39,664 nucleotides of DNA from a virus (lineage: Duplodnaviria; Caudoviricetes): positions 1 through 39,664 of the IMG/VR virus record IMGVR_UViG_3300032212_000057; one strand, written 5' to 3'. The notes under the pieces are model-generated. The model worked only from the letters and a program-made list of their open reading frames with translations. It did not search any database and was not told the origin of the DNA. A program made the translations under genes and the position numbers. Shown one piece after another: positions 3,746 through 39,475 of the stretch (position 1 is its first letter; every line of letters begins with the position of its first letter).

Positions 3746-6700
3746 TTATTCATCGGCAAAGCGGCCTTTGTCTCGCAGGTGTTGCATGTTCTTGCGCAGG
3801 TACACGCCATTTTTTGTCATGGCGCTGGTGCGCGCGCGCATTTTTAACGAACGCTTTATACTGTTAACTGTAATGGCGTTGCCCGGGTTCTTTCTGTTGA
3901 ATTTACCGATATTTTGCATTATTTCTTCGTGCCAGGTCGTATCACCGTTATTAATGGCTATTGCTAACTGGTTCATTAACAGCTTACGACGATTATTAAG
4001 CCGTGACTCGGTGTTTTTAATGGCCGACTTCGCATCATATTGTTTATTAGCGCGACCTAAAGAAAACCCCATTGCCTGTTGAAATACTTCAAAGGCAGTC
4101 ACATCATCAATAATCGGATCCCCTTTAAAGTTGTTCACCCCTTCATCAGCGTAGCGGATTGCCTTCATGTCGTCTTTAAGGGCTTTCGGCATCATCGTTT
4201 CAATACCGCGTTGTACGTGCCCTTGCTGCATCATGCTGATACCTCTTGCCCAATTATCACCAATCGAGAAAGTTGGTCCTAGCATTTGAGTAATCCAATA
4301 TTGATACTCTTGTTTCATTTCTAAATCACGACTTGGAGGACGCAACCACAAATCACCCAGACTTAAACGATCACTAACACCTAACCCAGACCACGCTTCG
4401 GCAGGGCCTTTAGTAATAACATCCGACCAGGTTGAACCTAAATGCTCGGCTAAAAAATTACGGCGTTCTGCTTCAATGTCGTAAGGCTCATCTTCGTCAT
4501 CCCAAATCGCTTCAAGGATTAAATCAATCAGGCCAAAAGGAAGCCATGGCATACCGTCATAACCGACAAACAAGTAAGCCATAAAGAGAATGCCGCCCAG
4601 TTGTTTTCGCGCTTCTTTCTTAACTTCGGAGTTTTCATCTTTAACAGACTGATACGTTAAACGCGCTAATTTGTAGATCATGTTTAATGAGTATTGTTTA
4701 AAGATAAATGCCACCTTTGCAATATCGTTCTGCATAAAGGTGGCTTTGTTCGCGTTAGAATAATTAAAGTGAGTGTTATCTATCATGTCATACGCAGCTT
4801 GTGCCGCCGCGTCATGGCTCATGCCTTTTTTACGCGCCAATCGATAGGTGGCAATGCCGGTCACTTCACGATTAAACCGTTCTGCATGGTGAAAAGCATA
4901 ACTGATCACACCCATAGTTTTATCTTTTAACGGGCTATAAATTGCGCTTGGCGTTTCAGACATAGCCGCTAAATCATGTGCCAAAGTTTTATCAATAATG
5001 CCGGTATCCACCAAATGCTGATACGCTTTAAGTTCATCCCCCTTTAAGGCACCTTCAATGCTAAATAAACCATCTTTAAGTTTTATCCTGTTGCCCATAA
5101 ATTCACGCGAGGCACTTAACAGCTCTTTACCTGCTTTACCAAAACCAAACTTTGCACCCATTGCAGGGTAAGCCACTATCGCCGTTTGGCTCATATTCAC
5201 CATGGCTGCTGCAGGCGTTAACCCCAAGTACCAAACAAAATTAAACTGCGTAACGTTATTTGCCCAGGGAGCACCCATTGGGTTCATTGCCCAATCGTGA
5301 CGTTTTTTCGTTTCATTTAAAATTTGAGCCGCTTTATCAGCCTTTTCGCCCGACATATCACGCGCCTGCTCTTCCATGTTTTCAATTTGTGTTTGCAACA
5401 CATCGGCAAATTTTAATTTACTTAGCTGGTAAGCGCCGTGGAAATTGTGGTGTGAAAAAGCACGCAACGCATCATGCGTAAAGCCTTCGGTTTTTTGACG
5501 ATGAATAAAACTTTTGCGTACCGACATGTCCGGTAAGGTTGTTAAAAATAGCTGGTAAATTTCATCCTTCGCTTTATCGGCCATAGAGCCCGATATTGTT
5601 TTATCCACCACGCTTAAGATATCCGCAATAAAGCCCTCGCTCACAACGTCTTCACGTGCGCCCTTTTCAATCTTATAGCCTGTTTTAACCTTAAATCCTT
5701 GCCGTTCTTTTTTCTTAACCAGGTTATTACGCTGGCCAATTTTTTCAAACATATAAAACTCATAGTCCATAGACTTATCTGCAGCCGACTTAATTGCCTC
5801 TTCTTTCGAGTCAAACGTTTCGATAGCAGCTATACCTTCCTTGTAGGTTACCGCCCATTCGCCATGCTGTGAGTCTTTAGCTGTAAAGCCTTTGTTTTTA
5901 ACTGAATATTTTTTTTGCCATTCGCCGGGTATGAGCACCTTAGCCCAATAATCACCAAAACGAGTCAACGGGAAATAAGGTCCTTCAATACGAACAGATT
6001 CAAACCGTGCGCGCATTTCAGCTTTATACTGTGACTTTTCTTTGGCGCTCAATTCGGCGCGATCAATCTTATCCAGCAACGCTTGTTCAGTTTGGTTAAA
6101 CCGTTCAACGTAATGATCGCGCACTTCTTTATAGATATTTTTGGCTTCTTTAGGCAGCTTGTCATATTGACGCTTTAATGCGGGGTATGCCTTCGCTCTA
6201 TTTTTTTCAAAAGCAATTTTATCCCTTACTTCATTCGCTTTATTGATATACTTATTTGCTTCCCCAGACATCGACCTTGCGGCACGATGAGCTTTGGCAA
6301 TCTCTTCCTTAGCCTCAGCAAAATCAATAATTGAATTGTAAGGCTCTGCCGGGTCAACGCCGGCAATCGTGGCCGCATGCATGGTATCAACCATGGCATC
6401 CGCCGCTTGCCTGTTACCCTTCTCAAACGCCCACTTCGCCCAGCTTTTAGCTACCCCGGAAGATTCCGCGACTAACTCATTTCTAAACGCATCCATTTTT
6501 TCTGCCGTTAAAACATAGGTTTTAATGGTAGGTAAAACGTCTTGACCAATATCAGCCAAGTGCCGACGAGTAAGCAATTTCAACCACTGAGGCCGCGTTT
6601 TCGTATTCGCGTTTTTAATTTTGTCTTTAACATCTTCAAAGGTGGGGACGTTGCTGGCTTCCTCATCAATGTCATCCAGAATTTCATCAGGCTCGCGTGA

Positions 6701-28169: not shown

Positions 28170-28746
28170 CGGCGACTTCTTCGGCTGTTGGTTCTGGTCC
28201 TTTGATTTGCGGAACATCACAAACAGGAATAACAAACCTTTCACCAGCCACATAAAGTCTAAATAAATTTCGATAGTGCTTTTCAAAAGCTTTACGTGAT
28301 TTATTTTCAGGCCACGTTCTGAATTCCCACTGCCCGACTTTAGTAACAGCATGCCAAACGATAGCTATACGCCAATCTCCCCGCGTAGCCATTAAATACG
28401 CTTCATCCTCATCTGGTAAACGATAGTCATTAAATTCTGGCGTACAATATCTTGAGAAAGTAGAAAGATTGGGCGAATGTGTTTCTCCAAGCTCCTCACA
28501 TTTTTTTTTACCCAGCTCAATATGTGCCGGTGTAAATTTCTTGCGTTGAAAATGTTTTAACCAGGTCTTTGCTTGCTTGCCATACTGCGAAGTAAAACTT
28601 GAACCGAACAACCCTTCCATAAACTCCCACAGGACAATCATTACTTCGCTATCAATATCAAGTTTCGTGTTCATATACCCTATGTCCTCCCAGCAGCTGT
28701 TCTTCTGCGAGCTCTTTTGCGCTAAGACGCTTGTTTTTACTGACAT
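28108..28746 (-). CDS. Replication protein P-like (helicase loader-type)
   Basis: Downstream of and overlapping the initiator; LWEFMEGLFGSSFTSQYG, PNLSTF..YC and LPDEDEAY motifs; RBS GGAG before ATG 28746. Confidence 0.65.
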   Translation of the reverse strand: MSVKTSVLAQKSSQKNSCWEDIGYMNTKLDIDSEVMIVLWEFMEGLFGSSFTSQYGKQAKTWLKHFQRKKFTPAHIELGKKKCEELGETHSPNLSTFSRYCTPEFNDYRLPDEDEAYLMATRGDWRIAIVWHAVTKVGQWEFRTWPENKSRKAFEKHYRNLFRLYVAGERFVIPVCDVPQIKGPEPTAEEVAAARIVLSRFVGREDAFKPKA

Positions 28747-29608
28747 GATGGACTCCTTGGGGAAGTTTTTTATTTCTATCTCGAATAATTTGAGCAGCAA
28801 AATTTTTATAATATGCGGGGGTATCAGGACGTGCACCTAACTTGCTCTCAGCCGCCTCTATAGCAACAACAGCTTCGCTTAACGTGAAATTAGAATCACA
28901 CCACAGTCTGAACATCGTCATCACATTAATCGTCCTGACTTCATGTAAAGCATATCTTGCCTTATCCATTAAGAACTGCCCCCACTCGCTGCCGCTGGTA
29001 GGCGCGTGTTTTAACTTTTCTTCATCAAGCAATATTTGCACTGGTATAGTTAGGTTAGGTATACCTGATCCCTGATGTATGTCGTTCATACCCTCTTGTT
29101 GTTGGTTGTTCCTCTGGTTGTTCTTATTCTCAAAACTAACGACATTTAAAGGCTTTGCGGCGCTTTTTGTTGGTTGTTCCTCTGGTTGTTCCTCTTGGTT
29201 GTTCATTGGTTGTTCCTCATTAGAACCTGAAGATTCACCACCAGAAGAATTACCATTTTTTAAAGTGGCCGTGGGGGAAAAACGGTTAACCGTGGCCAAA
29301 GGCAACCGATAAATAGGTTGTTGCATACGTTTACTAACTAATTGCAGCAAGCCGCGTCTTAATAGCTGTTGTATTGCTGCACGCAATTGATTCCGCGTAG
29401 GCTTAATGTTTTGATATTTACTGCCTCGTTCACGTATCGTTTCGCACGTTTCAATCATCATCTGATAACTTATTTTACGAACCGCGCCCACCAGTCCAGA
29501 GTTATAATCCATGTGCCGCCGAAAACAACGCAAATAAACAATTTGCGTTAAAGGAGGCAAGCCTTGTAGCTCAAACTCTTCTTCGTCGTTCCATTGAGTA
29601 GATGGCAT
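28658..29608 (-). CDS. Replication initiator (O-like)
   Basis: 316 aa; N-terminal winged-HTH-like region, iteron-encoded linker EEQP repeats; after the cII-like gene. Confidence 0.75.
   Translation of the reverse strand: MPSTQWNDEEEFELQGLPPLTQIVYLRCFRRHMDYNSGLVGAVRKISYQMMIETCETIRERGSKYQNIKPTRNQLRAAIQQLLRRGLLQLVSKRMQQPIYRLPLATVNRFSPTATLKNGNSSGGESSGSNEEQPMNNQEEQPEEQPTKSAAKPLNVVSFENKNNQRNNQQQEGMNDIHQGSGIPNLTIPVQILLDEEKLKHAPTSGSEWGQFLMDKARYALHEVRTINVMTMFRLWCDSNFTLSEAVVAIEAAESKLGARPDTPAYYKNFAAQIIRDRNKKLPQGVHHVSKNKRLSAKELAEEQLLGGHRVYEHET
29103..29218. repeat. Iteron-like repeats / replication origin inside the initiator gene
   Basis: Six copies of TGGTTGTTC (four as TGGTTGTTCCTC) at 29103, 29115, 29171, 29183, 29196 and 29207. 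Confidence 0.75.
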
Positions 29609-30529: not shown

Positions 30530-30601
30530 AATATACAAACATATTTGTAATAGATCAACAAATATTTTTGCATTACTTAAAACAAGCAAATTTGTGAGAA
30601 T
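30530..30601. promoter_or_regulatory. OR region: three 14-bp operators with pR and pRM
   Basis: ACAAACATATTTGT (30535), ACAAATATTTTTGC (30558), ACAAGCAAATTTGT (30582); pR TTGATC-17-TATATT on minus; pRM TTACTT-17-GAGAAT on plus. Confidence 0.8.
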
Positions 30602-30606
30602 AAGGC

Positions 30607-31122
30607 ATGACTAACAATTTTTTAACATACAGCGATCGACTCAACTACGCGATAAAGCTTGCTAAAGACACTTTTGACCCCAAAATGAGCCAATCTAAAC
30701 TTGCCAGGGCAATAGGAGTAACACCGCAAACAGTGCAATATTTGTGTTCCAATCAAAGAGAACAAAATAAGGGCAGTAAATACACAGGGCAACTTGCAAA
30801 AATACTAAGAGTGGATAGTCACTGGCTTGAAACAGGTCAAGGGGAATACGCTCTACTAGAAGTAAAGGAAGAGCCCGCTGAATACTCGCCCCTTCTTAAC
30901 AAAATGGCTGTAAAAGACACCATTACTTTTATCAGGTACATCGAACACAAGGTTGAAGCCGAGCTATCCATAGAAGAATGGACAACTCTCTTCACACATT
31001 TTTACGAAAAATATGATGCCAGCTACAAAAAAGGCATTAAAGTTGATAAAACAGAATTAGCATTAGATTTCCATAGTCTTATGGATGAATTAAAATCCAC
31101 AAAAAGCACCATAAAAAGCTAA
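30607..31122 (+). CDS. cI: CI-like repressor (434-type HTH, no S24 peptidase domain evident)
   Basis: SQSKLARAIGVTPQTVQYL...LAKILRVDSHWLETG resembles the 434 repressor N-domain; flanked by operator triplets. Confidence 0.85.
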   Translation: MTNNFLTYSDRLNYAIKLAKDTFDPKMSQSKLARAIGVTPQTVQYLCSNQREQNKGSKYTGQLAKILRVDSHWLETGQGEYALLEVKEEPAEYSPLLNKMAVKDTITFIRYIEHKVEAELSIEEWTTLFTHFYEKYDASYKKGIKVDKTELALDFHSLMDELKSTKSTIKS

Positions 31123-31234
31123 AGTTCCGCGAATAACCCCAATTCCCCTCCCTCTATATAGTTTTAGCCCCACACTTAAAACCATTAAAGCCAACTCTCT
31201 TTTAGCTTAATAGAAAGGCTTTTCTGTTATATCT

Positions 31235-31292
31235 ACAAAATTATTTGTTGACACATACAAAATAATTTGTAAGTATAGACAAAATTATTTGT
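31235..31292 (+). promoter_or_regulatory. OL region: three 14-bp operators overlapping pL
   Basis: ACAAAATTATTTGT (31235), ACAAAATAATTTGT (31257), ACAAAATTATTTGT (31279) at 22-bp spacing; TTGACA at 31248. Confidence 0.85.
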
Positions 31293-31306
31293 AAGAGGGC
31301 TAAAAC

Positions 31307-33053: not shown

Positions 33054-33269
33054 ATGGGAGATTTTATTTTTACAAAAGTTTTGCCAGTAATTGCGATCCC
33101 AGTCGTTGGCCTTTTGATTTACATAATATGTATATGGATGCCGGTACATTTATCAAACGAGGCAGATTGCTTGGAAATGGGATACCCGAAAACAAATACG
33201 ACTATTGGGCTGAAAGGGTATTGCATGAATCTTGATGGAGCCATTACAGGGAAAGTGATCCCACTTTAG
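33054..33269 (+). CDS. Cassette ORF: 71-aa membrane-anchored protein
   Basis: RBS AGGAG, N-terminal TM, two Cys; stop just before attC1. Confidence 0.7.
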   Translation: MGDFIFTKVLPVIAIPVVGLLIYIICIWMPVHLSNEADCLEMGYPKTNTTIGLKGYCMNLDGAITGKVIPL

Positions 33270-33271
33270 CC

Positions 33272-33334
33272 ACATAACGACTTGAGGTAACGGGCAAGAC
33301 GCTTTTTCTTGTCCCGTTGGGCGATTTGTTATAA
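33272..33334 (-). repeat. attC site 1 (63 bp)
   Basis: Minus: TTATAAC-AAATC-GCCCAACG-GGACAAGA..TCTTGCCC-GTTACCT-CAAGTC-GTTATGT. Confidence 0.8.
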
Positions 33335-33351
33335 CTCATTTATGGTGAACT

Positions 33352-34044
33352 ATGAAACTTGGTGACAGAATAAAACGATACGAAACTGTTTCACATTACA
33401 GCCTAACTGCCCGAACTCCCATTATGATTCGCGTAGATGGCAGGGCGTTCCATACGTTTACCAGAGGCATGAAGCGGCCTTTTGATTCTGATTTAATGGC
33501 GGCTATGGTTGCTGCTGCTAAAGATGTTGCTGCTGATATGCAGGGTTTTAAGGTTGGTTATGTTCAGTCCGATGAAGCCACTTTTTGCCTTACCGACTAC
33601 GACAACATTGAAACGCAAGGCTGGTTTGATTATGACCTTGCTAAGATTGTCTCATTATCAGCGGCTCTAATGTCGGTGAGATTTGCAAAGTATTTCCGCT
33701 TCACTACACATACCCCTGTATTTGATTCCAGGGTGTTTAATGTGCCAGCCAATGACGTTGTAAATGCTTTCTTGTGGAGAGCTAAGGACTGGGAGCGTAA
33801 CAGCCTGCAAATGTACTCAAGGGCGCACTACTCGCACAAAGAGCTACACGGCAAGAAGCGCAAGGATATGCACGAAATGCTATATAAGGCGGGAAAAAAC
33901 TGGGCTACTGATTTAACGATGCAGGAAAAGAATGGCACGTTTTTGATTGCGACAGATGACGGAATCACAGAACGGCACGACATTGAGCCGAGGTACGATG
34001 CCTTAAATGCTGAGTTTGGCACACTGTTTAACTATGAGTTATAA
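33352..34044 (+). CDS. Cassette ORF: Thg1-like tRNA(His) guanylyltransferase / 3'-5' polymerase
   Basis: IRVDGRAFHTFT, YVQSDE, FDSRVF and WR..DW.RNS motifs; stop TAA lies in the attC2 core. Confidence 0.92.
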   Translation: MKLGDRIKRYETVSHYSLTARTPIMIRVDGRAFHTFTRGMKRPFDSDLMAAMVAAAKDVAADMQGFKVGYVQSDEATFCLTDYDNIETQGWFDYDLAKIVSLSAALMSVRFAKYFRFTTHTPVFDSRVFNVPANDVVNAFLWRAKDWERNSLQMYSRAHYSHKELHGKKRKDMHEMLYKAGKNWATDLTMQEKNGTFLIATDDGITERHDIEPRYDALNAEFGTLFNYEL

Positions 34045-34099
34045 CGGCAAGATTAAAAAGCGCCGCTTTTAGGCGTCTTTTTTGAATGGAGTGTTAGGT
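34039..34099 (-). repeat. attC site 2 (61 bp)
   Basis: Minus: ACCTAAC-ACTCC-ATTCAAAA-AAGACGCC..GGCGCT-TTTTAAT-CTTGCC-GTTATAA. Confidence 0.9.
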
Positions 34100-34103
34100 A
34101 TTT

Positions 34104-34577
34104 ATGGACGTTAAAGAAAATATTTTAGACCCATGCTGTGGAAGTAAGATGATGTGGTTTGACAAAGAAAACCAACAGGCTTTGTTTTGTGATATTAGAA
34201 CAGAAAGCCATACGCTATGTGACGGGCGCGCATTAAATATAAAACCAGACATGGAGTTGGATTTTAGAAGTATGCCGTTTGATGATGGGAGTTTTAAATT
34301 GGTTGTTTTTGACCCTCCTCATTTAGTAAGAGCTGGCAACAAAAGCTGGTTGAAGCTCAAGTATGGAAAGCTTAACGAAAATTGGAAAGAAGACATTCAA
34401 AAAGGCTTCTCTGAGTGCTTTAGAGTTTTAGCTAAAGATGGGGTTCTAATTTTCAAGTGGAATGAAACACAGGTAAAAGTAAGTGAGTTATTAGCGTTAA
34501 CAAATAAAAAACCATTGTTTGGCCACAAGTCAGGAAAAAATATGAATACGCACTGGCTTACTTTTATGAATACCTAA
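34104..34577 (+). CDS. Cassette ORF: SAM-dependent (probably DNA amino-) methyltransferase
   Basis: ILDPCCGS (motif I) and VVFDPPH (motif IV); stop lies in the attC3 core. Confidence 0.85.
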   Translation: MDVKENILDPCCGSKMMWFDKENQQALFCDIRTESHTLCDGRALNIKPDMELDFRSMPFDDGSFKLVVFDPPHLVRAGNKSWLKLKYGKLNENWKEDIQKGFSECFRVLAKDGVLIFKWNETQVKVSELLALTNKKPLFGHKSGKNMNTHWLTFMNT

Positions 34578-34651
34578 CGCCATGATAACCGGCGCGAGGT
34601 AACGAGCGTCCGAATGAGCGATAGCGAACGATGTTTATTAACTTGTTATGA
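34572..34651 (-). repeat. attC site 3 (80 bp, branched)
   Basis: Minus: TCATAAC-AAGTT-AATAAAC..TTCGCTATCGCTCA..GGACGC..GCGCC-GGTTATC-ATGGC-GTTAGGT. Confidence 0.85.
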
Positions 34652-34668
34652 ATTTATGGAGAACAAAG

Positions 34669-34923
34669 ATGAGTGATACAAAATATGCTGTATTTGTGAA
34701 AGATGAGACCGTGGCGCAGTCAATATATAAGGATTTCGTTACAGGTGTGATGGTGGCGTTTTGCGTATACATAAGCCAAGGAAGTACTTGGTGGACATTT
34801 GTGACTGGTTTAATGTTTCTCGTTTTCCTATTTGCAAAAGTAAAGTCTTTGCTGGACAAACAGAACAACTTCAAAAGCAAAGAGGAATTACAGCACTGGG
34901 TGGAAGGGCTGGAAGATTCATAA
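34669..34923 (+). CDS. Cassette ORF: 84-aa two-TM membrane protein
   Basis: RBS GGAG; two hydrophobic segments; stop lies in the attC4 core. Confidence 0.7.
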   Translation: MSDTKYAVFVKDETVAQSIYKDFVTGVMVAFCVYISQGSTWWTFVTGLMFLVFLFAKVKSLLDKQNNFKSKEELQHWVEGLEDS

Positions 34924-34989
34924 CGGCGCTGCTCAGTTGTTGCGACTGAGCGCAGCGAAAGAGCAATCAACTGGAGAGAATTGTTATGT
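34918..34989 (-). repeat. attC site 4 (72 bp)
   Basis: Minus: ACATAAC-AATTC-TCTCCAGT-TGATTGC..GCAACA-ACTGAGC-AGCGCC-GTTATGA. Confidence 0.85.
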
Positions 34990-35246
34990 GTAATTGCAGA
35001 ACGATGAGAAGAACTTGGGAGGAAACGCAAAATGGAAGGTTTGCACCAAGCAATCACGCTCCCGCTTGCGAGGATTACGAGACTAAAAGATACGTCTGCC
35101 TGTTTGATGATGACGGCAGGAGTTTTATTGATACTGTTGAAAACCAATGTTCTTTTATGTCGCACGATGATGGTAATTGGCGGCAATCGGATATTTATAT
35201 AACAGAAGATCAATTTAATAAGCTGCAAGAGTACGCAGGCCTGTAA
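34986..35246 (+). CDS. Cassette ORF: 86-aa hypothetical protein
   Basis: ATG lies within the GTTATG core; ORF fills the cassette. Confidence 0.65.
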   Translation: MCNCRTMRRTWEETQNGRFAPSNHAPACEDYETKRYVCLFDDDGRSFIDTVENQCSFMSHDDGNWRQSDIYITEDQFNKLQEYAGL

Positions 35247-35247
35247 C

Positions 35248-35332
35248 ACATAACGGCGCTGTTAATTTGCGCCACTGATTGAACAAAGAAAAGAACGGCG
35301 CTCTCGGCGTCAAATTGAACTACTTGTTATAT
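35248..35332 (-). repeat. attC site 5 (85 bp)
   Basis: Minus: ATATAAC-AAGTA-GTTCAATT-TGACGCC..GGCGCA-AATTAAC-AGCGCC-GTTATGT; closely follows the aadA attC layout. Confidence 0.9.
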
Positions 35333-35351
35333 TTTTAATTAAGGAATAGCT

Positions 35352-35537
35352 ATGAAAGACAGACAAACAAACGGCTTTATATCTTTTGACGCATGGTTTC
35401 GGATACTTAAAAAAATGGCTATTCATAGTTATGGTTTTGAGGTTAGCGAAAACAGCCCTGATGCGTGGCAAGAATATTACGACGATGCATTTACGCCCAG
35501 AGAAGCAATAGATGAAGATCAGTATGCGGGAATATAA
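35352..35537 (+). CDS. Cassette ORF: 61-aa hypothetical protein
   Basis: RBS AAGGA; W..YY.D..TP.EAI.ED motif; stop lies in the attC6 core. Confidence 0.7.
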   Translation: MKDRQTNGFISFDAWFRILKKMAIHSYGFEVSENSPDAWQEYYDDAFTPREAIDEDQYAGI

Positions 35538-35594
35538 CGCAAAGTTAAACGGGCGCGGCTTTTCGCGCTCCGATTTTTAAACGCCTTGTTATGC
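35532..35594 (-). repeat. attC site 6 (63 bp)
   Basis: Minus: GCATAAC-AAGGC-GTTTAAAA-ATCGGAGCGCG..CGCGCCC-GTTTAAC-TTTGC-GTTATAT. Confidence 0.85.
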
Positions 35595-35611
35595 AAGGCA
35601 AGGAGATAATA

Positions 35612-35827
35612 ATGAAAGTAGGTATACAACTGAATTTCTACCTTGGCCAGCGTGTTATTTATGACGGTATGGCCGGATCTCTGAAATCACTCTCAATCGA
35701 GCAGGATGGAATTATGTGCACTGTTGTATTAGATGATCCGATCATTATTCCGCCAGAACATGGAATTGAACGGGAGATAAAAATTTACACTCAGCATGTA
35801 CCTATCCATGAATTAAGGGCTGCATAA
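35612..35827 (+). CDS. Cassette ORF: 71-aa hypothetical (SH3-like beta) protein
   Basis: RBS AAGGAG; FYLGQRVIY motif; stop lies in the attC7 core. Confidence 0.7.
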   Translation: MKVGIQLNFYLGQRVIYDGMAGSLKSLSIEQDGIMCTVVLDDPIIIPPEHGIEREIKIYTQHVPIHELRAA

Positions 35828-35885
35828 CGATTAGTTAAAGGGAAGCGCGCCTTTCGCGCTTTCCATTTTGGACAGCGTGTTATGT
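35822..35885 (-). repeat. attC site 7 (64 bp)
   Basis: Minus: ACATAAC-ACGCT-GTCCAAAA-TGGAAAGCGCG-AAAGG-CGCGCTTCC-CTTTAAC-TAATC-GTTATGC. Confidence 0.85.
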
Positions 35886-35906
35886 GTTTTAACAGAGGAT
35901 TTTAAG

Positions 35907-36179
35907 ATGGGAAAGTGGGACAACAAGTTATCGACGATACGTAAAATGGCCGGCAATGACTCAACTAAAGAGATTGCATCGACCATAGGAACAACCGTGC
36001 CAAACTTGCATAAAATTTGCCACAGGAATGGCATTTCACTTCCTCGTGATCCTGAAACATATAAAGGCGGCAGAGGTCGCAAGCCCTCTGCACAAAAGTT
36101 AGAGGCAGCAAAAGATTTACTTTTAAATGCGGGTTATAGAGTTTATATGCTAGATCCGTTTGGCGGAATAAACACATAA
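35907..36179 (+). CDS. Cassette ORF: 90-aa HTH-like protein
   Basis: RBS GAGGA; STKEIASTIGTTVPNLHKIC; stop lies in the attC8 core. Confidence 0.7.
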   Translation: MGKWDNKLSTIRKMAGNDSTKEIASTIGTTVPNLHKICHRNGISLPRDPETYKGGRGRKPSAQKLEAAKDLLLNAGYRVYMLDPFGGINT

Positions 36180-36222
36180 CGCACGTATTCAGCGGTTTAT
36201 CCGCTGGAATTTATTGTTAGCC
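36174..36222 (-). repeat. attC site 8 (49 bp, minimal)
   Basis: Minus: GGCTAAC-AATAA-ATTCCAGC-GGATAAACC-GCTGAAT-ACGTGC-GTTATGT. Confidence 0.9.
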
Positions 36223-36235
36223 ACAGGAGGCTGAT

Positions 36236-36427
36236 ATGAAATTATTTGTATGGACTGGATTCTGTCCTGATTACACAAGCGGTATGGCATTTGCCATCGC
36301 TAAAGATGAAGCAGACGCAAGAAAGCAGATTGAAGCCAACCAAGGCTATGAGGTTTATACGTGGGGTACGCTTTCAGTACATCGACTGGATAGGCGTGTT
36401 GCCTATTCTGTTGCTGGTGGTGGCTAA
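36236..36427 (+). CDS. Cassette ORF: 63-aa hypothetical protein
   Basis: RBS AGGAGG; DYTSGMAFAIA...EAR; stop lies in the attC9 core. Confidence 0.75.
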   Translation: MKLFVWTGFCPDYTSGMAFAIAKDEADARKQIEANQGYEVYTWGTLSVHRLDRRVAYSVAGGG

Positions 36428-36482
36428 CGGCTTTAATAAGTGGCGCGGCTTTATCGCGTCCATTTTGATTTATTTGTTATAT
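36422..36482 (-). repeat. attC site 9 (61 bp)
   Basis: Minus: ATATAAC-AAATA-AATCAAAA-TGGACGCG..CGCGCC-ACTTATT-AAAGCC-GTTAGCC. Confidence 0.9.
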
Positions 36483-36495
36483 TTTAAGGTGATTT

Positions 36496-36699
36496 ATGAA
36501 AAAGAAAACAATGACTACAAATTTAACTGCGCATGAGTTTGAGCTTGTAGAAAAACTCTGTAAAGAAAAAGGCATTACTAAAACCGCTCTCGTGAGGCAG
36601 TCAATAAGGCTTTATCAGCAGATAGGCGAAAGAGTAGAGGCTGGTAAGATTTTACTAAAAGAAAATGATAGACCTAGAAAAGAAATAATAATCATTTAA
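36496..36699 (+). CDS. Cassette ORF: ribbon-helix-helix (CopG-like) protein
   Basis: TMTTNLT..EFELVEKLC...GITKTALVRQSI pattern; RBS AAGGTGA. Confidence 0.75.
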   Translation: MKKKTMTTNLTAHEFELVEKLCKEKGITKTALVRQSIRLYQQIGERVEAGKILLKENDRPRKEIIII

Positions 36700-36701
36700 G
36701 A

Positions 36702-36823
36702 ATATAACGCTGGAGATGTGGGGCTGGCGGAAACGAGGCCCCGGAGACACCAACCTGTAAGAATTTCTTACAAGTTGAATTAAACGACGCGGTAGCCAGT
36801 CCCGCACTATTGACTGGTTAGGC
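36702..36823 (-). repeat. attC site 10 (122 bp, VCR-like long site)
   Basis: Minus: GCCTAAC-CAGTC-AATAGTGC-GGGACTGGC..GCCAGCCCC-ACATCT-CCAGC-GTTATAT with apical stem CAAC.TGTAAGAA/TTCTTACA.GTTG. Confidence 0.85.
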
Positions 36824-36903
36824 GCGATGTTAAACGAAGGGTGCACGGGCGAAGCCGGTGCGGGACTAACATAGCAGGGCGAAGCCTTGCGGAGGTTGAA
36901 GAA

Positions 36904-37119
36904 ATGGAAATGGGTGCCGCAGTAAAGAAGCTGATAAAGAATGAGGCCGAGAACGGGACCATTGAGAGTATGGCTACTGCGTATTCTGTGGCGCTTGGTG
37001 TAATTCCAGCAGGAGACAATAGCCAGTGGGGGCCAATCAACGAGATGCTGCCAGGCAAAAAGCTGGAGTTAATAAAAACCAAGGCGTGGAGAAAGTACGA
37101 AGCCATGGTTAGCGCCTAA
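36904..37119 (+). CDS. Cassette ORF: 71-aa hypothetical protein
   Basis: RBS GGAGG before ATG 36904; stop lies in the attC11 core. Confidence 0.6.
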   Translation: MEMGAAVKKLIKNEAENGTIESMATAYSVALGVIPAGDNSQWGPINEMLPGKKLELIKTKAWRKYEAMVSA

Positions 37120-37185
37120 CGATGGAGGTAACGCGCATGAGTGAGCGCAGCGAAACGAATGTCGAAGTTGACCATGTTGTTATGT
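37114..37185 (-). repeat. attC site 11 (72 bp)
   Basis: Minus: ACATAAC-AACAT-GGTCAACT-TCGACAT..TTCGCTGCGCTCA..ATGCGC-GTTACCT-CCATC-GTTAGGC. Confidence 0.8.
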
Positions 37186-37301
37186 GCGACTTCATTTGCG
37201 AGCACTGCAACAAAGAATACCACGGCGACTGCAAACAAGCCTTTGCTGATGGGTGGCAACATGGATGGGATGCTTCTTTTTGCCCAGATTGCAATGTCTA
37301 A
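37182..37301 (+). CDS. Cassette ORF: 39-aa CxxC...CxxC Zn-finger microprotein
   Basis: Hand translation MCDFICEHC...FCPDCNV; ATG lies in the GTTATG core. Confidence 0.5.
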   Translation: MCDFICEHCNKEYHGDCKQAFADGWQHGWDASFCPDCNV

Positions 37302-37461
37302 GTGCGAGCATCTGCATACGCCTGTACCGGAAGAAAGCGCCAGCTATTTAGGATGGCACGCGTGGGCTGACAAGATGAGTAAAGCGCACAATCAGAAAAA
37401 ATGCCCGGCATGTGGACTATGGAAAATATGGGTGCCAAAACAGAAACGCAAAAGCGCATAA
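37294..37461 (+). CDS. Cassette ORF: 55-aa Cys/His Zn-binding protein
   Basis: MSKCEHLHTP...YLGWHAWA...CPACGLW; stop lies in the GCATAAC core. Confidence 0.65.
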   Translation: MSKCEHLHTPVPEESASYLGWHAWADKMSKAHNQKKCPACGLWKIWVPKQKRKSA

Positions 37462-37489
37462 CAGCAGAATATACAGAGCGTGCAAGGTA

Positions 37490-37795
37490 GTGTACAGAAA
37501 ACGTACAAAATACAGTGAAAAAATGAAAGTTGCGCGTGCTGCTAAAGAGCGTAAACGGCTTGAAGGTGATGCGCCCGACTACCCCGTAATGCTGCCAGAC
37601 GTTCGCCGGCGAATCATTATCATTGACTATGATTTTGGCGAAGTCATACACGAAATAGTATTAAAAAGATCAAACCGCGCCGACTGCTACCAGGCTGTTA
37701 TCGACGGTAAAATTTGGAAAGAAAGGATCGGCTGGTCAAAAATTTTAGAAGCACTCCGCAAAAGCTTTATTCGTGTTGGAGCAACAATAAATTAA
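37490..37795 (+). CDS. Hypothetical protein upstream of the recombinase (candidate directionality factor)
   Basis: Basic 101-aa ORF (GTG start uncertain); function inferred from position only. Confidence 0.55.
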   Translation: MYRKRTKYSEKMKVARAAKERKRLEGDAPDYPVMLPDVRRRIIIIDYDFGEVIHEIVLKRSNRADCYQAVIDGKIWKERIGWSKILEALRKSFIRVGATIN

Positions 37796-37907: not shown

Positions 37908-39440
37908 ATGATAGAAAAAAACAAAAAAGCCGCGCTGTACTTAAGGTCGTCGAAGGATCGAAGCGATGTAAGCATCGATGCTCAACGCAGAACCTTAACG
38001 AAACTCGCTAAAGAAAAAGGCATATTAATCGTTCATGAGTACGCTGATCCCGTTGTTTCAGCTAAAGATGAACGTCGTCCTGAATTTCAAAAACTTCTTG
38101 TTGATTTACGGTCCCCTTCTCGCAGTTGGAATACATTGATATTGCTGGATTCATCCAGGTTATCGAGAAGGCAATACTTCGCCCCTATATTCAAACACGA
38201 ACTTTCAAAACGTGGCGTTGATATTATATTTTCAAAAATCCCCGATGTTGACCCCATCACAAAAATTGTTTTAGAAGGCACCTTTGAAACAATGGACGTG
38301 GTTCATTCCATGCTATCCAAAGAAAAAGGATTAGCTGGCATGGCCGAAAACGTTAACCAGGGTTTTCGTGCTGGTGGTCGTGCGCCACGGGGTTACAAAC
38401 TCAAACACGTAGCCACCGGCACAATGCGAGAAGGTAAACCCGTAGAAAAATCCACGCTCGAACCCAACAACGAAGCGCCTGCTGTTAAACGATATTTAAA
38501 AGCAAGAGCGCAGGACGTTCCCCGCGCCAAAGCCAAAGCCGACTCAGCCATCAAGGCAAGCAACAGCTCATTAGTTGACTTAGAGTGGAACGCACTTACC
38601 TATGCCGGCAACACAATATGGAACGTAAGAAATGAATTTGTTGCAGGTCAAGGCTATAAAAACGGCTCAAAACGTAAACCGCGAAGCCAATGGCTAATCA
38701 ATAAAAAAACACATAAAGCATTAATTTCAAATGAAGAAGCCGAACACCTGGTATCCCAACTTGAAACAAGCAACGCCAATATAAACAGAGCAAAAGCCAA
38801 AGCCGCCGGCTCCAAATATTTATTATCAGGATTATTAAAGTCACCAGACGGAAGAAACTGGGACGGCGATGGCAAAAATTACAGAGTAAGAACCAAAGCC
38901 GGACTAAAAGGACGGTACGTTAACCGGGAAAAAATTGAGCGCCCAATCATTGCTCAGTTCATAGCCGACATGAAATCAAAAAGCTTTCTAAATGCACTAC
39001 TGAAAAAAGTACAGCTATGCAACACCATCGAACCACCACCAGAACTGGGCGAAGCAACCAAGCAACTAAATGACATCAACAAACGAATTTCAAAAACAAT
39101 GGACTTCGCATCAGAGCTAGAAGATCCAGCACCGGCCTTAAGAAAGATAAACGAACTGGAAAAAACAAGAAAAGTGGTCGCCAACGAAATAACAACGCTA
39201 GAAAGAGAGTATAAAGCTCAAAGCTCATTAGCTCATATAACAGAAGATGATTTGAAACAGTCACTAAATAATTTAGCTGAAGGAATGCTAGATCCAAGCA
39301 AAGAAGCTATATCGCCATTCGTTGAGCGTATTGAATTAGATCCGGTAAGTTTAAAAGCCAATATCCACTACCGCATATCGGTAGTGGATAGACTTAATAT
39401 GGCGTCCCCAAGGGGAGTCGAACCCCTGTTACTGCCGTGA
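37908..39440 (+). CDS. Large serine recombinase (prophage integrase)
   Basis: ALYLRSS catalytic motif, S.DAQ, RPEFQKL, DSSRLSR, recombinase domain (GGRAPRGY), coiled coil; ends inside the tRNA. Confidence 0.93.
   Translation: MIEKNKKAALYLRSSKDRSDVSIDAQRRTLTKLAKEKGILIVHEYADPVVSAKDERRPEFQKLLVDLRSPSRSWNTLILLDSSRLSRRQYFAPIFKHELSKRGVDIIFSKIPDVDPITKIVLEGTFETMDVVHSMLSKEKGLAGMAENVNQGFRAGGRAPRGYKLKHVATGTMREGKPVEKSTLEPNNEAPAVKRYLKARAQDVPRAKAKADSAIKASNSSLVDLEWNALTYAGNTIWNVRNEFVAGQGYKNGSKRKPRSQWLINKKTHKALISNEEAEHLVSQLETSNANINRAKAKAAGSKYLLSGLLKSPDGRNWDGDGKNYRVRTKAGLKGRYVNREKIERPIIAQFIADMKSKSFLNALLKKVQLCNTIEPPPELGEATKQLNDINKRISKTMDFASELEDPAPALRKINELEKTRKVVANEITTLEREYKAQSSLAHITEDDLKQSLNNLAEGMLDPSKEAISPFVERIELDPVSLKANIHYRISVVDRLNMASPRGVEPLLLP
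39362..39390. terminator. Perfect 12-bp inverted repeat just 3' of the tRNA (terminator/stabiliser or att arm)
   Basis: TATCCACTACCG-CATAT-CGGTAGTGGATA, inside the integrase ORF; U-tract weak. Confidence 0.55.
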
Positions 39441-39475
39441 AAGGGCAATGTCCTAGGCCTCTAGACGATGGGGAC
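39400..39475 (-). tRNA. tRNA-Glu (anticodon TTC), prophage attachment site
   Basis: 76 nt GTCCCCATCGTCTAGAGGCCTAGGAC...CTTTCAC...GGTTCGACTCC...GGGGACGCCA; cloverleaf with CCA. Confidence 0.97.

Follow-up and report, generated by a model that had tools for sequence, protein, structure and literature searches.

Integrons are taught as bacterial devices whose cassette genes are read from a promoter at the insertion site, attI. The closest described systems (published sources cited throughout were covered in part) are the classical integron, phage-borne attC-site clusters that have no integron integrase (CALINs), and single attC sites without one (SALINs). Classical integrons (PMC4889954, PMC5027507) combine a characteristic attC anatomy and an AAC crossover with one fixed entry site (R box, spacer and degenerate L box), behind which a divergent gene is positioned, and their integrase, IntI, cuts the bottom strand of attC at AAC (PMC5027507). 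The phage-borne CALINs (Qi et al. 2023, PMC9892861) are phage attC arrays without IntI that carry methyltransferase cargo, and their attC sites are IntI1 substrates with a preference for the bottom strand, while SALIN/attG insertions show IntI working in trans away from an integron (Loot et al., bioRxiv 10.1101/2022.09.11.507474). Here we describe an attC array in the virus record IMGVR_UViG_3300032212_000057, whose full length of 39,664 bases (completeness estimate 59%) constitutes the window analysed; the record is a lambdoid prophage with head genes, a P-like loader, Cro and CI. The array consists of eleven integron-type cassettes, with genes on the attC bottom strand and a conserved attI-like end, and we consider it likely that a host IntI acting in trans inserts and excises them.

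The array shares with the classical integron the attC anatomy, the AAC crossover, the single fixed entry site and the divergent gene position behind it, but differs in lacking intI, in having its genes on the bottom strand and a predicted promoter at the opposite end, in that the most recent cassette would come last in the operon, and in a cargo of phage gene families. What the 59%-complete record contains, several clustered attC sites without a neighbouring intI, defines a CALIN; in place of intI beside attI, a small gene (d1) and a serine integrase follow the entry site, and the cassette genes are not top-strand genes read from a cassette promoter (Pc) at attI, as they would be in a complete integron. 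As judged from its anatomy, the array is thus integron-like in its workings and a CALIN by definition, set apart by gene polarity and by a conserved phage entry site with a companion gene. Neither antisense genes nor a conserved phage entry site is mentioned in the text of PMC9892861 covered here, and the attG site is a 3-bp consensus found everywhere, whereas the present site of about 30 bp is conserved over 74 distinct variants. Phages appear to use integron chemistry under a reversed logic and to have their own defined entry site for it.

The first-pass annotation had assigned the canonical top strand of the sites to the minus strand, with all open reading frames (ORFs) on plus. A covariance model was trained on 80 bacterial loci with IntI1 relatives, where sites were taken from the strand reading away from intI and 53 non-redundant, intI-oriented top strands were kept. 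It matched all eleven window sites on the minus strand with exact ends (10 at E<0.05), gave zero matches on plus at E≤5 and only three short weak matches elsewhere on minus, and an arm weight matrix scored minus above plus at 11/11 sites. The sites, all with minus as top strand, are attC 1 at the distal array end (33272..33334), attC 2 (34039..34099; matched at 91% identity by a site of another phage), attC 3 (34572..34651; the weakest, model E 1.6), attC 4 (34918..34989; 96% identical to positions 6237-6305 of locus L209, there before a different gene), attC 5 (35248..35332), attC 6 (35532..35594), attC 7 (35822..35885), attC 8 (36174..36222; 49 bp and the best model score), attC 9 (36422..36482), attC 10 (36702..36823; 122 bp) and attC 11 (37114..37185). 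The R''/L''...L'/R' hairpin, which carries AAC/GTT and has one additional base in L'', was recovered by the model in all eleven, and L-arm pairing was at least 5/7 at ten, site 1 pairing poorly under a fixed register. The ends of the array accord with a minus top strand, having a complete hairpin at the left and a bare box without a hairpin (37456) at the right. On minus the base following AAC is A at ten sites and C at one, and on plus it is G at all eleven, as in 51/53 classical bottom strands. The asymmetric motifs on which the earlier polarity call was built held in part: the A-starting spacer is present at 10/11 sites, but the T-C-A signature of L'' is exact at only six and the GGAC/GAC bulge is clear at only some.

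A misread polarity, with plus as the true top strand, has some arguments on its side, as attC is nearly palindromic, stop codons in TAAC also occur in 27/68 classical cassettes, and the training set was filtered for top-type features. Yet before that filter was applied all but two of the listed candidates on the strand away from intI already scored as top, and the model, the matrix, the array ends and the junctions of shared cassettes all agree on minus, so that we regard a misreading as extremely improbable. The identification of the eleven sites as genuine attC sites with their top strand on minus and their genes on plus is, at sequence level, confirmed. The boxes on either side of each gene are perfect complements in ten of eleven cases and match at 6/7 positions in the other, which none of 200,000 shuffles equalled; this complementarity is strand-symmetric and measures the integrity of the cassettes, not their polarity.

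Judged by ORF length, seven of the eleven window gaps were inverted, none was classical and four were ambiguous; homologues or PHROG matches settled three of the latter for plus, and the plus call for the fourth (36904) rests solely on a ribosome-binding site and a stop codon in the box. Nine stops are, as first noted, the TAA of a left box, and the ORFs at 34986 and 37182 do begin inside GTTATG. Each cassette comprises a hairpin, a ribosome-binding site and a gene closing in the AA of the next box. All genes read on plus. Cassette 1 (33352..34044) encodes a protein of the Thg1 tRNA-His guanylyltransferase family (PF04446, E 9e-28; phrog_4717), cassette 2 (34104..34577) a DNA methyltransferase (phrog_954; PADLOC MTase_II and oMTase) and cassette 3 (34669..34923) a small hydrophobic protein whose homologue search gave 53 proteins including itself, one homologue lying outside any cassette in locus L206. 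Cassette 4 (34986..35246) has its ATG within the GTTATG box, cassette 5 (35352..35537) matches phrog_519, cassette 6 (35612..35827) has a ribosome-binding site and its stop in the box, and cassette 7 (35907..36179) matches phrog_9129. Cassette 8 (36236..36427) has 37 homologues, that in locus L210 having an attC upstream and a bare box downstream; cassette 9 (36496..36699) has a weak, below-cut-off match to a ribbon-helix-helix family (PF01402, E 0.006); cassette 10 (36904..37119) is overlapped by a 99-aa minus-strand ORF; and cassette 11 (37182..37461) holds two small Cys-rich ORFs (37182-37301 and about 37294-37461). Family matches were obtained for cassettes 1, 2, 5, 7, 8 and 9 and full-length homologues for 3 and 8, with no family match for 4, 6, 10 and 11. 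The cassette genes show a G skew that is absent from backbone genes on the plus strand (p 0.0002), which would be in line with recent arrival. The gene just left of attC 1, at 33054-33269 (+), resembles the cassette genes in its G skew (+0.20) and is preceded by a GTTAAGC box (33024) without a recognisable hairpin; it is possibly an eroded oldest cassette, and its status as a twelfth cassette is unsupported, the upstream box scoring -30.8. Methyltransferase and Thg1 homologues were not useful as cassette markers, since a scan of 88 of the 109 loci gave four model matches, none of them next to the gene.

At the right end, the attI-like docking site (37456..37489, minus) consists, in the plus reading, of an R box, a 5-nt spacer, a degenerate L box and a TGCAAGG tail, with no hairpin, and d1 (37490..37795, +) follows it directly. 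The first-pass annotation had noted neither this site nor d1; the clue to the site was an unrelated phage (L200) with the same sequence behind a bare box and the same next gene. Upstream of d1 the consensus is YAAC, 4–5 nt, a degenerate L box and the TGCAAGG tail, about 32 bp overall. A matrix built from 37 d1-linked sites scored at least 12 in all 58 d1 loci with 40 nt of room (the window included, one marginal) vs 0/285,182 background positions. Covariance matches in the 62 d1 loci were on minus in 174/176 cases; with two plus rows and one cut row left out of the counts, minus-top attC matches were present in 45 of the 62 loci, all of them upstream of d1 and none downstream, and within 1.5 kb of d1 in 36 of the 41 loci having that much upstream sequence. 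The docking-site box and the nearest attC box were complementary at 7/7 positions in 20 of 27 cases. In all 19 non-duplicate pairs with at least 80% identity right of the crossover, identity stopped 0–6 nt left of AAC. A fixed, non-hairpin entry site with a G|TT crossover, as expected of an attI, is accordingly supported by comparative sequence only.

Pattern scans for the docking site returned 31 metagenome and 30 viral stretches, with d1 behind the site in 21 of the former and in three of ten new viral contigs; the other seven had no d1 match, and all seven had attC matches. Altogether, 87 distinct junctions were seen across 74 docking-site variants. Because the genes after the module differ widely (integrase, portal, terminase, primase, RusA, NinG, SSB and Gam), the docking site and d1 behave as a portable module. 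One might argue instead that there is no true attI, that a CALIN grew here by IntI insertion at attG and then at attC, and that the conserved sequence is the regulatory head of d1: IntI does insert cassettes at GWT genome sites (bioRxiv 10.1101/2022.09.11.507474), and the TGCAAGG tail stands where the ribosome-binding site of d1 would be. This is unlikely, as the site shows conservation all the way to the crossover, occurs with arrays yet without d1 in the seven contigs just mentioned and heads arrays amid very different neighbouring genes, and an attG origin would not fix gene orientation. The docking-site pattern was found in 0/401 bacterial genomes, which gave no host by that route, and the site was absent from phages TJE1 and MW202573 and from the scanned stretches of PH101 and P12002L. 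In two contigs of 331 kb and 467 kb (L297 and L313) the docking site lies at 5001 beside a gene that is Mu-like by eye, which suggests these contigs as a route to a host and its intI.

Comparison of arrays further revealed seven shared blocks, six of which close at a TAAC left box with different hairpins after it, the seventh continuing into the docking site, and closure of shared cassettes exactly at the TAAC box after the gene fits a unit made of a hairpin and the gene downstream of it. As to where the blocks begin, this is the left box of the upstream hairpin in three cases, the interior of the same hairpin in two, the end of a locus in another and the inside of a gene in the last. In L310 one cassette stands at the docking site; in L317, a second array on the same contig, it precedes a hairpin. 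L305 and L315 have a distal 997-nt block in common with differing proximal cassettes, which fits entry at the docking site. Promoter-distal entry, as first proposed, is supported, in that the array ends at the docking site, identity stops there at AAC and the L305/L315 block is distal, and entry of new cassettes at that end would be expected. Near-identical hairpins precede unrelated genes, and the phage gene families of the cassettes also occur in phages without attC. In a sequencing run that contains the window (possibly its source; contigs only), contigs break at attC sites and the left box of attC 7 is where, at 35824, another sequence is joined on; such breaks are not independent evidence, and no clean excision joint was found in the contigs of this run.

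A quite different explanation holds that the hairpins are relics or RNA elements (terminators or processing sites) and that the genes move by homologous or micro-homologous recombination with no site-specific enzyme. Five of the eleven sites score as terminator-like, near-identical hairpins precede different genes and two shared blocks start mid-hairpin, all of which would suit it, but it does not predict complementary boxes across genes, AAC junctions or the retained IntI-specific extra base, and we judge it very unlikely.

Several observations on related arrays are recorded here. L162 and L209, on one contig, have hairpins 85–96% identical to attC 2, 4 and 6 before different genes, together with a Thg1 homologue, and their phage sequences match loose ends in the run containing the window. 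Two mirror-image arrays occur in one contig both in L310/L317, where each has a docking site, one has d1 and cassettes are in common, and in L197/L198. Loci L302, L305, L315, L319 and L322 form one phage group whose arrays are, by eye, rich in DNA methyltransferase cassettes, which suggests anti-restriction turnover.

The inversion was surveyed with a gene-blind DNA pattern that recovered 17 viral loci, of which three duplicates and two single-site loci were left out, so that 12 loci with 39 gaps remained; some of the 12 are related to one another, and class 1 integrons make up most of the bacterial control. Among the 39 viral gaps in these pattern-picked loci 29 were inverted, four classical and six ambiguous, vs 0 inverted, 67 classical and one ambiguous among 68 bacterial gaps. 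By length alone, 82 of the 157 gaps in d1 loci were inverted, 23 classical and 52 ambiguous. PHROG matches, sought in 68 of 75 undecided gaps, lay on the bottom strand in ten and on the top strand in one, and diverged homologues across all 157 gaps favoured the bottom strand by 7 vs 0. Among described phages, MW202573 has five minus attC matches amid genes annotated on plus and is inverted by annotation, the cultured phage PH101 has three plus attC matches with 12/12 genes on minus and is likewise inverted, and the P12002L array is mixed. The idea of an inverse-cassette pool is therefore borne out as typical of phages, 29/39 viral against 0/68 bacterial gaps being inverted, with TJE1 as an exception; the same inversion was seen in PH101, MW202573 and most viral gaps, but not in TJE1, which is classical, nor uniformly in the mixed P12002L. 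Another attC DNA pattern found nothing in viral contigs, and a further one nothing in the fetched loci. No description of inverted phage arrays or of the docking site was found in the literature searched, mostly outside subscription journals.

PH101 also bears on the strand that recombines. Its attC2 was recombined by IntI1, the bottom strand better than the top (PMC9892861, section 3.4, Table S3), and our sequence check showed that the bottom strand listed in Table S3 is the coding strand. As the PH101 array is both inverted and assayed, the published IntI1 assay already covers an inverted array, although the text of PMC9892861 covered here contains no comment on the gene inversion. The covariance model and this assay together uphold the earlier proposal that the recombinogenic strand is the coding strand.

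The window encodes neither IntI nor any other tyrosine recombinase, no IntI scored above the cut-off in 50 related records, and no tyrosine recombinase was found in 16 of 20 records that are at least 90% complete. The enzyme must therefore come in trans, and we infer that a host IntI is its simplest source. The large serine integrase of the prophage (37908..39440, +; domain and PHROG matches) is not an IntI, and no relatives of it were found in the viral contigs searched. The d1 product takes the place and direction that intI has in a class 1 integron. It is a conserved, basic protein of 101 aa with invariant Arg, Asp and Tyr residues; homologue searches gave 69 matches including itself, 271 clusters at 50% identity and 62 viral loci, and none was found in GenBank phages. 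The predicted structure is α-β4-α (predicted local distance difference test score 85.8); 51 members gave no Pfam match at E<0.05 and the fold no Foldseek match at E≤0.001, the best Atlas value being 0.78 (a lead only) and the best VIA Z 3.9. We predict that d1 is an accessory of the platform and not a recombinase, and a role as excisionase of the adjacent serine integrase is unlikely because the genes downstream of d1 vary. The proteins P0214 and P0202 share one junction at which the first ~70 residues of d1 pass into the C-terminal part of a tyrosine integrase, probably a deletion remnant.

That an enzyme other than IntI acts, either d1 itself or a phage Xer-like recombinase from a helper phage, is suggested by the position of d1, its travelling with the docking site and its invariant Arg, Asp and Tyr. 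We hold this to be unlikely, since d1 has 101 aa, an α-β4-α model and no family match, the attC sites have the canonical form, PH101, whose array is inverted, has sites that IntI1 recombines (PMC9892861), and docking sites without d1 still head arrays.

Sequence places the crossover in AAC and the fixed entry site at the operon's downstream end, followed by d1. In the favoured mechanism, with host IntI acting in trans, the cassette genes would be transcribed with the early operon from a CI-controlled pL. The array lies within an operon running from the CI-like repressor gene (30607..31122, +; PHROG match) to the integrase, and the putative pL (31233..31296, +), which is not among the promoter-scan matches, has a TTGACA amid three palindromic operators of the form ACAAAATWATTTGT, an arrangement suggestive of control by CI. 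Expression from this repressor-controlled pL, as the first-pass annotation supposed, is plausible, and the newest cassette would then lie at the greatest distance from the promoter, opposite to the order in bacterial integrons.

As to why the genes are inverted, the coding strand would be the lagging-strand template for a fork leaving the O-like gene (28658-29608, with iterons inside it) toward the integrase, which would favour hairpin folding; having the bottom strand as lagging template raises excision (PMC5371416). Replication may set the orientation, as first supposed, the geometry fitting but being confounded with gene direction. We prefer pool separation as the most likely reason: if a host cassette (a defence gene, for example) entered this array, it would be antisense to the phage operon, and a phage cassette that entered at a host attI would in turn be antisense to Pc. 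Many integron cassettes are anti-phage according to published abstracts.

Several points weigh against the interpretation advanced here. TJE1 is classical, 23 of the 157 gaps in d1 loci look classical by length alone, and in L230 a top-strand, classical gene with a PHROG match (6002-6499, minus) lies in an otherwise inverted array. Over 80 bacterial integron loci, mostly class 1, the docking-site matrix peaks at 8.4, the box spacing being the same by eye; as no site in these loci resembles the docking site by matrix score, its recognition by IntI is assumed from anatomy, and recombination of the window attC sites by IntI is a prediction. The host and its IntI were not found in the searches made, and a phage recombinase may lie beyond the 59%-complete record. 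Five of the eleven hairpins are terminator-like on plus, which would hinder read-through from pL. The two shared blocks starting inside an upstream hairpin imply a further route by which hairpins, too, are exchanged. The test of cassette order has little to go on, L302 and L305 having a proximal cassette in common, which provides no test of entry order, and a first comparison of 48 upstream regions gave no common cassette, just one diverged methyltransferase gene.

How cassettes are made is an open question. It is touched by the occurrence of the same gene families with and without attC and by the near-identical hairpins before unrelated genes, and attC and docking site together offer a ready substrate pair for an IntI assay. 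A bolder proposal, which we put forward only tentatively and hold to be less probable than not, is that a portable 'parasitic integron' resides in many temperate phages of unrelated kinds, with its own attI and a d1 that recruits or activates host IntI, an inverted private pool serving as a firewall, and phage genes made into cassettes. If it were true, captured host anti-phage cassettes would be silent and cassette genesis could be watched inside phage genomes.

Beyond the array, a tRNA gene (Glu by eye; 39403-39475, minus) overlaps the end of the serine integrase gene, and no attL duplicate of the tRNA region was found within the window. A promoter-like match at the docking site (37496-37468, minus) is aimed into the array and, with 12 such matches found against 19 expected, does not exceed chance. 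Operator-like palindromes of the form ACAA..TTTGT, five in all, flank the CI gene, at 30535, at 30582 and within 31235-31292.

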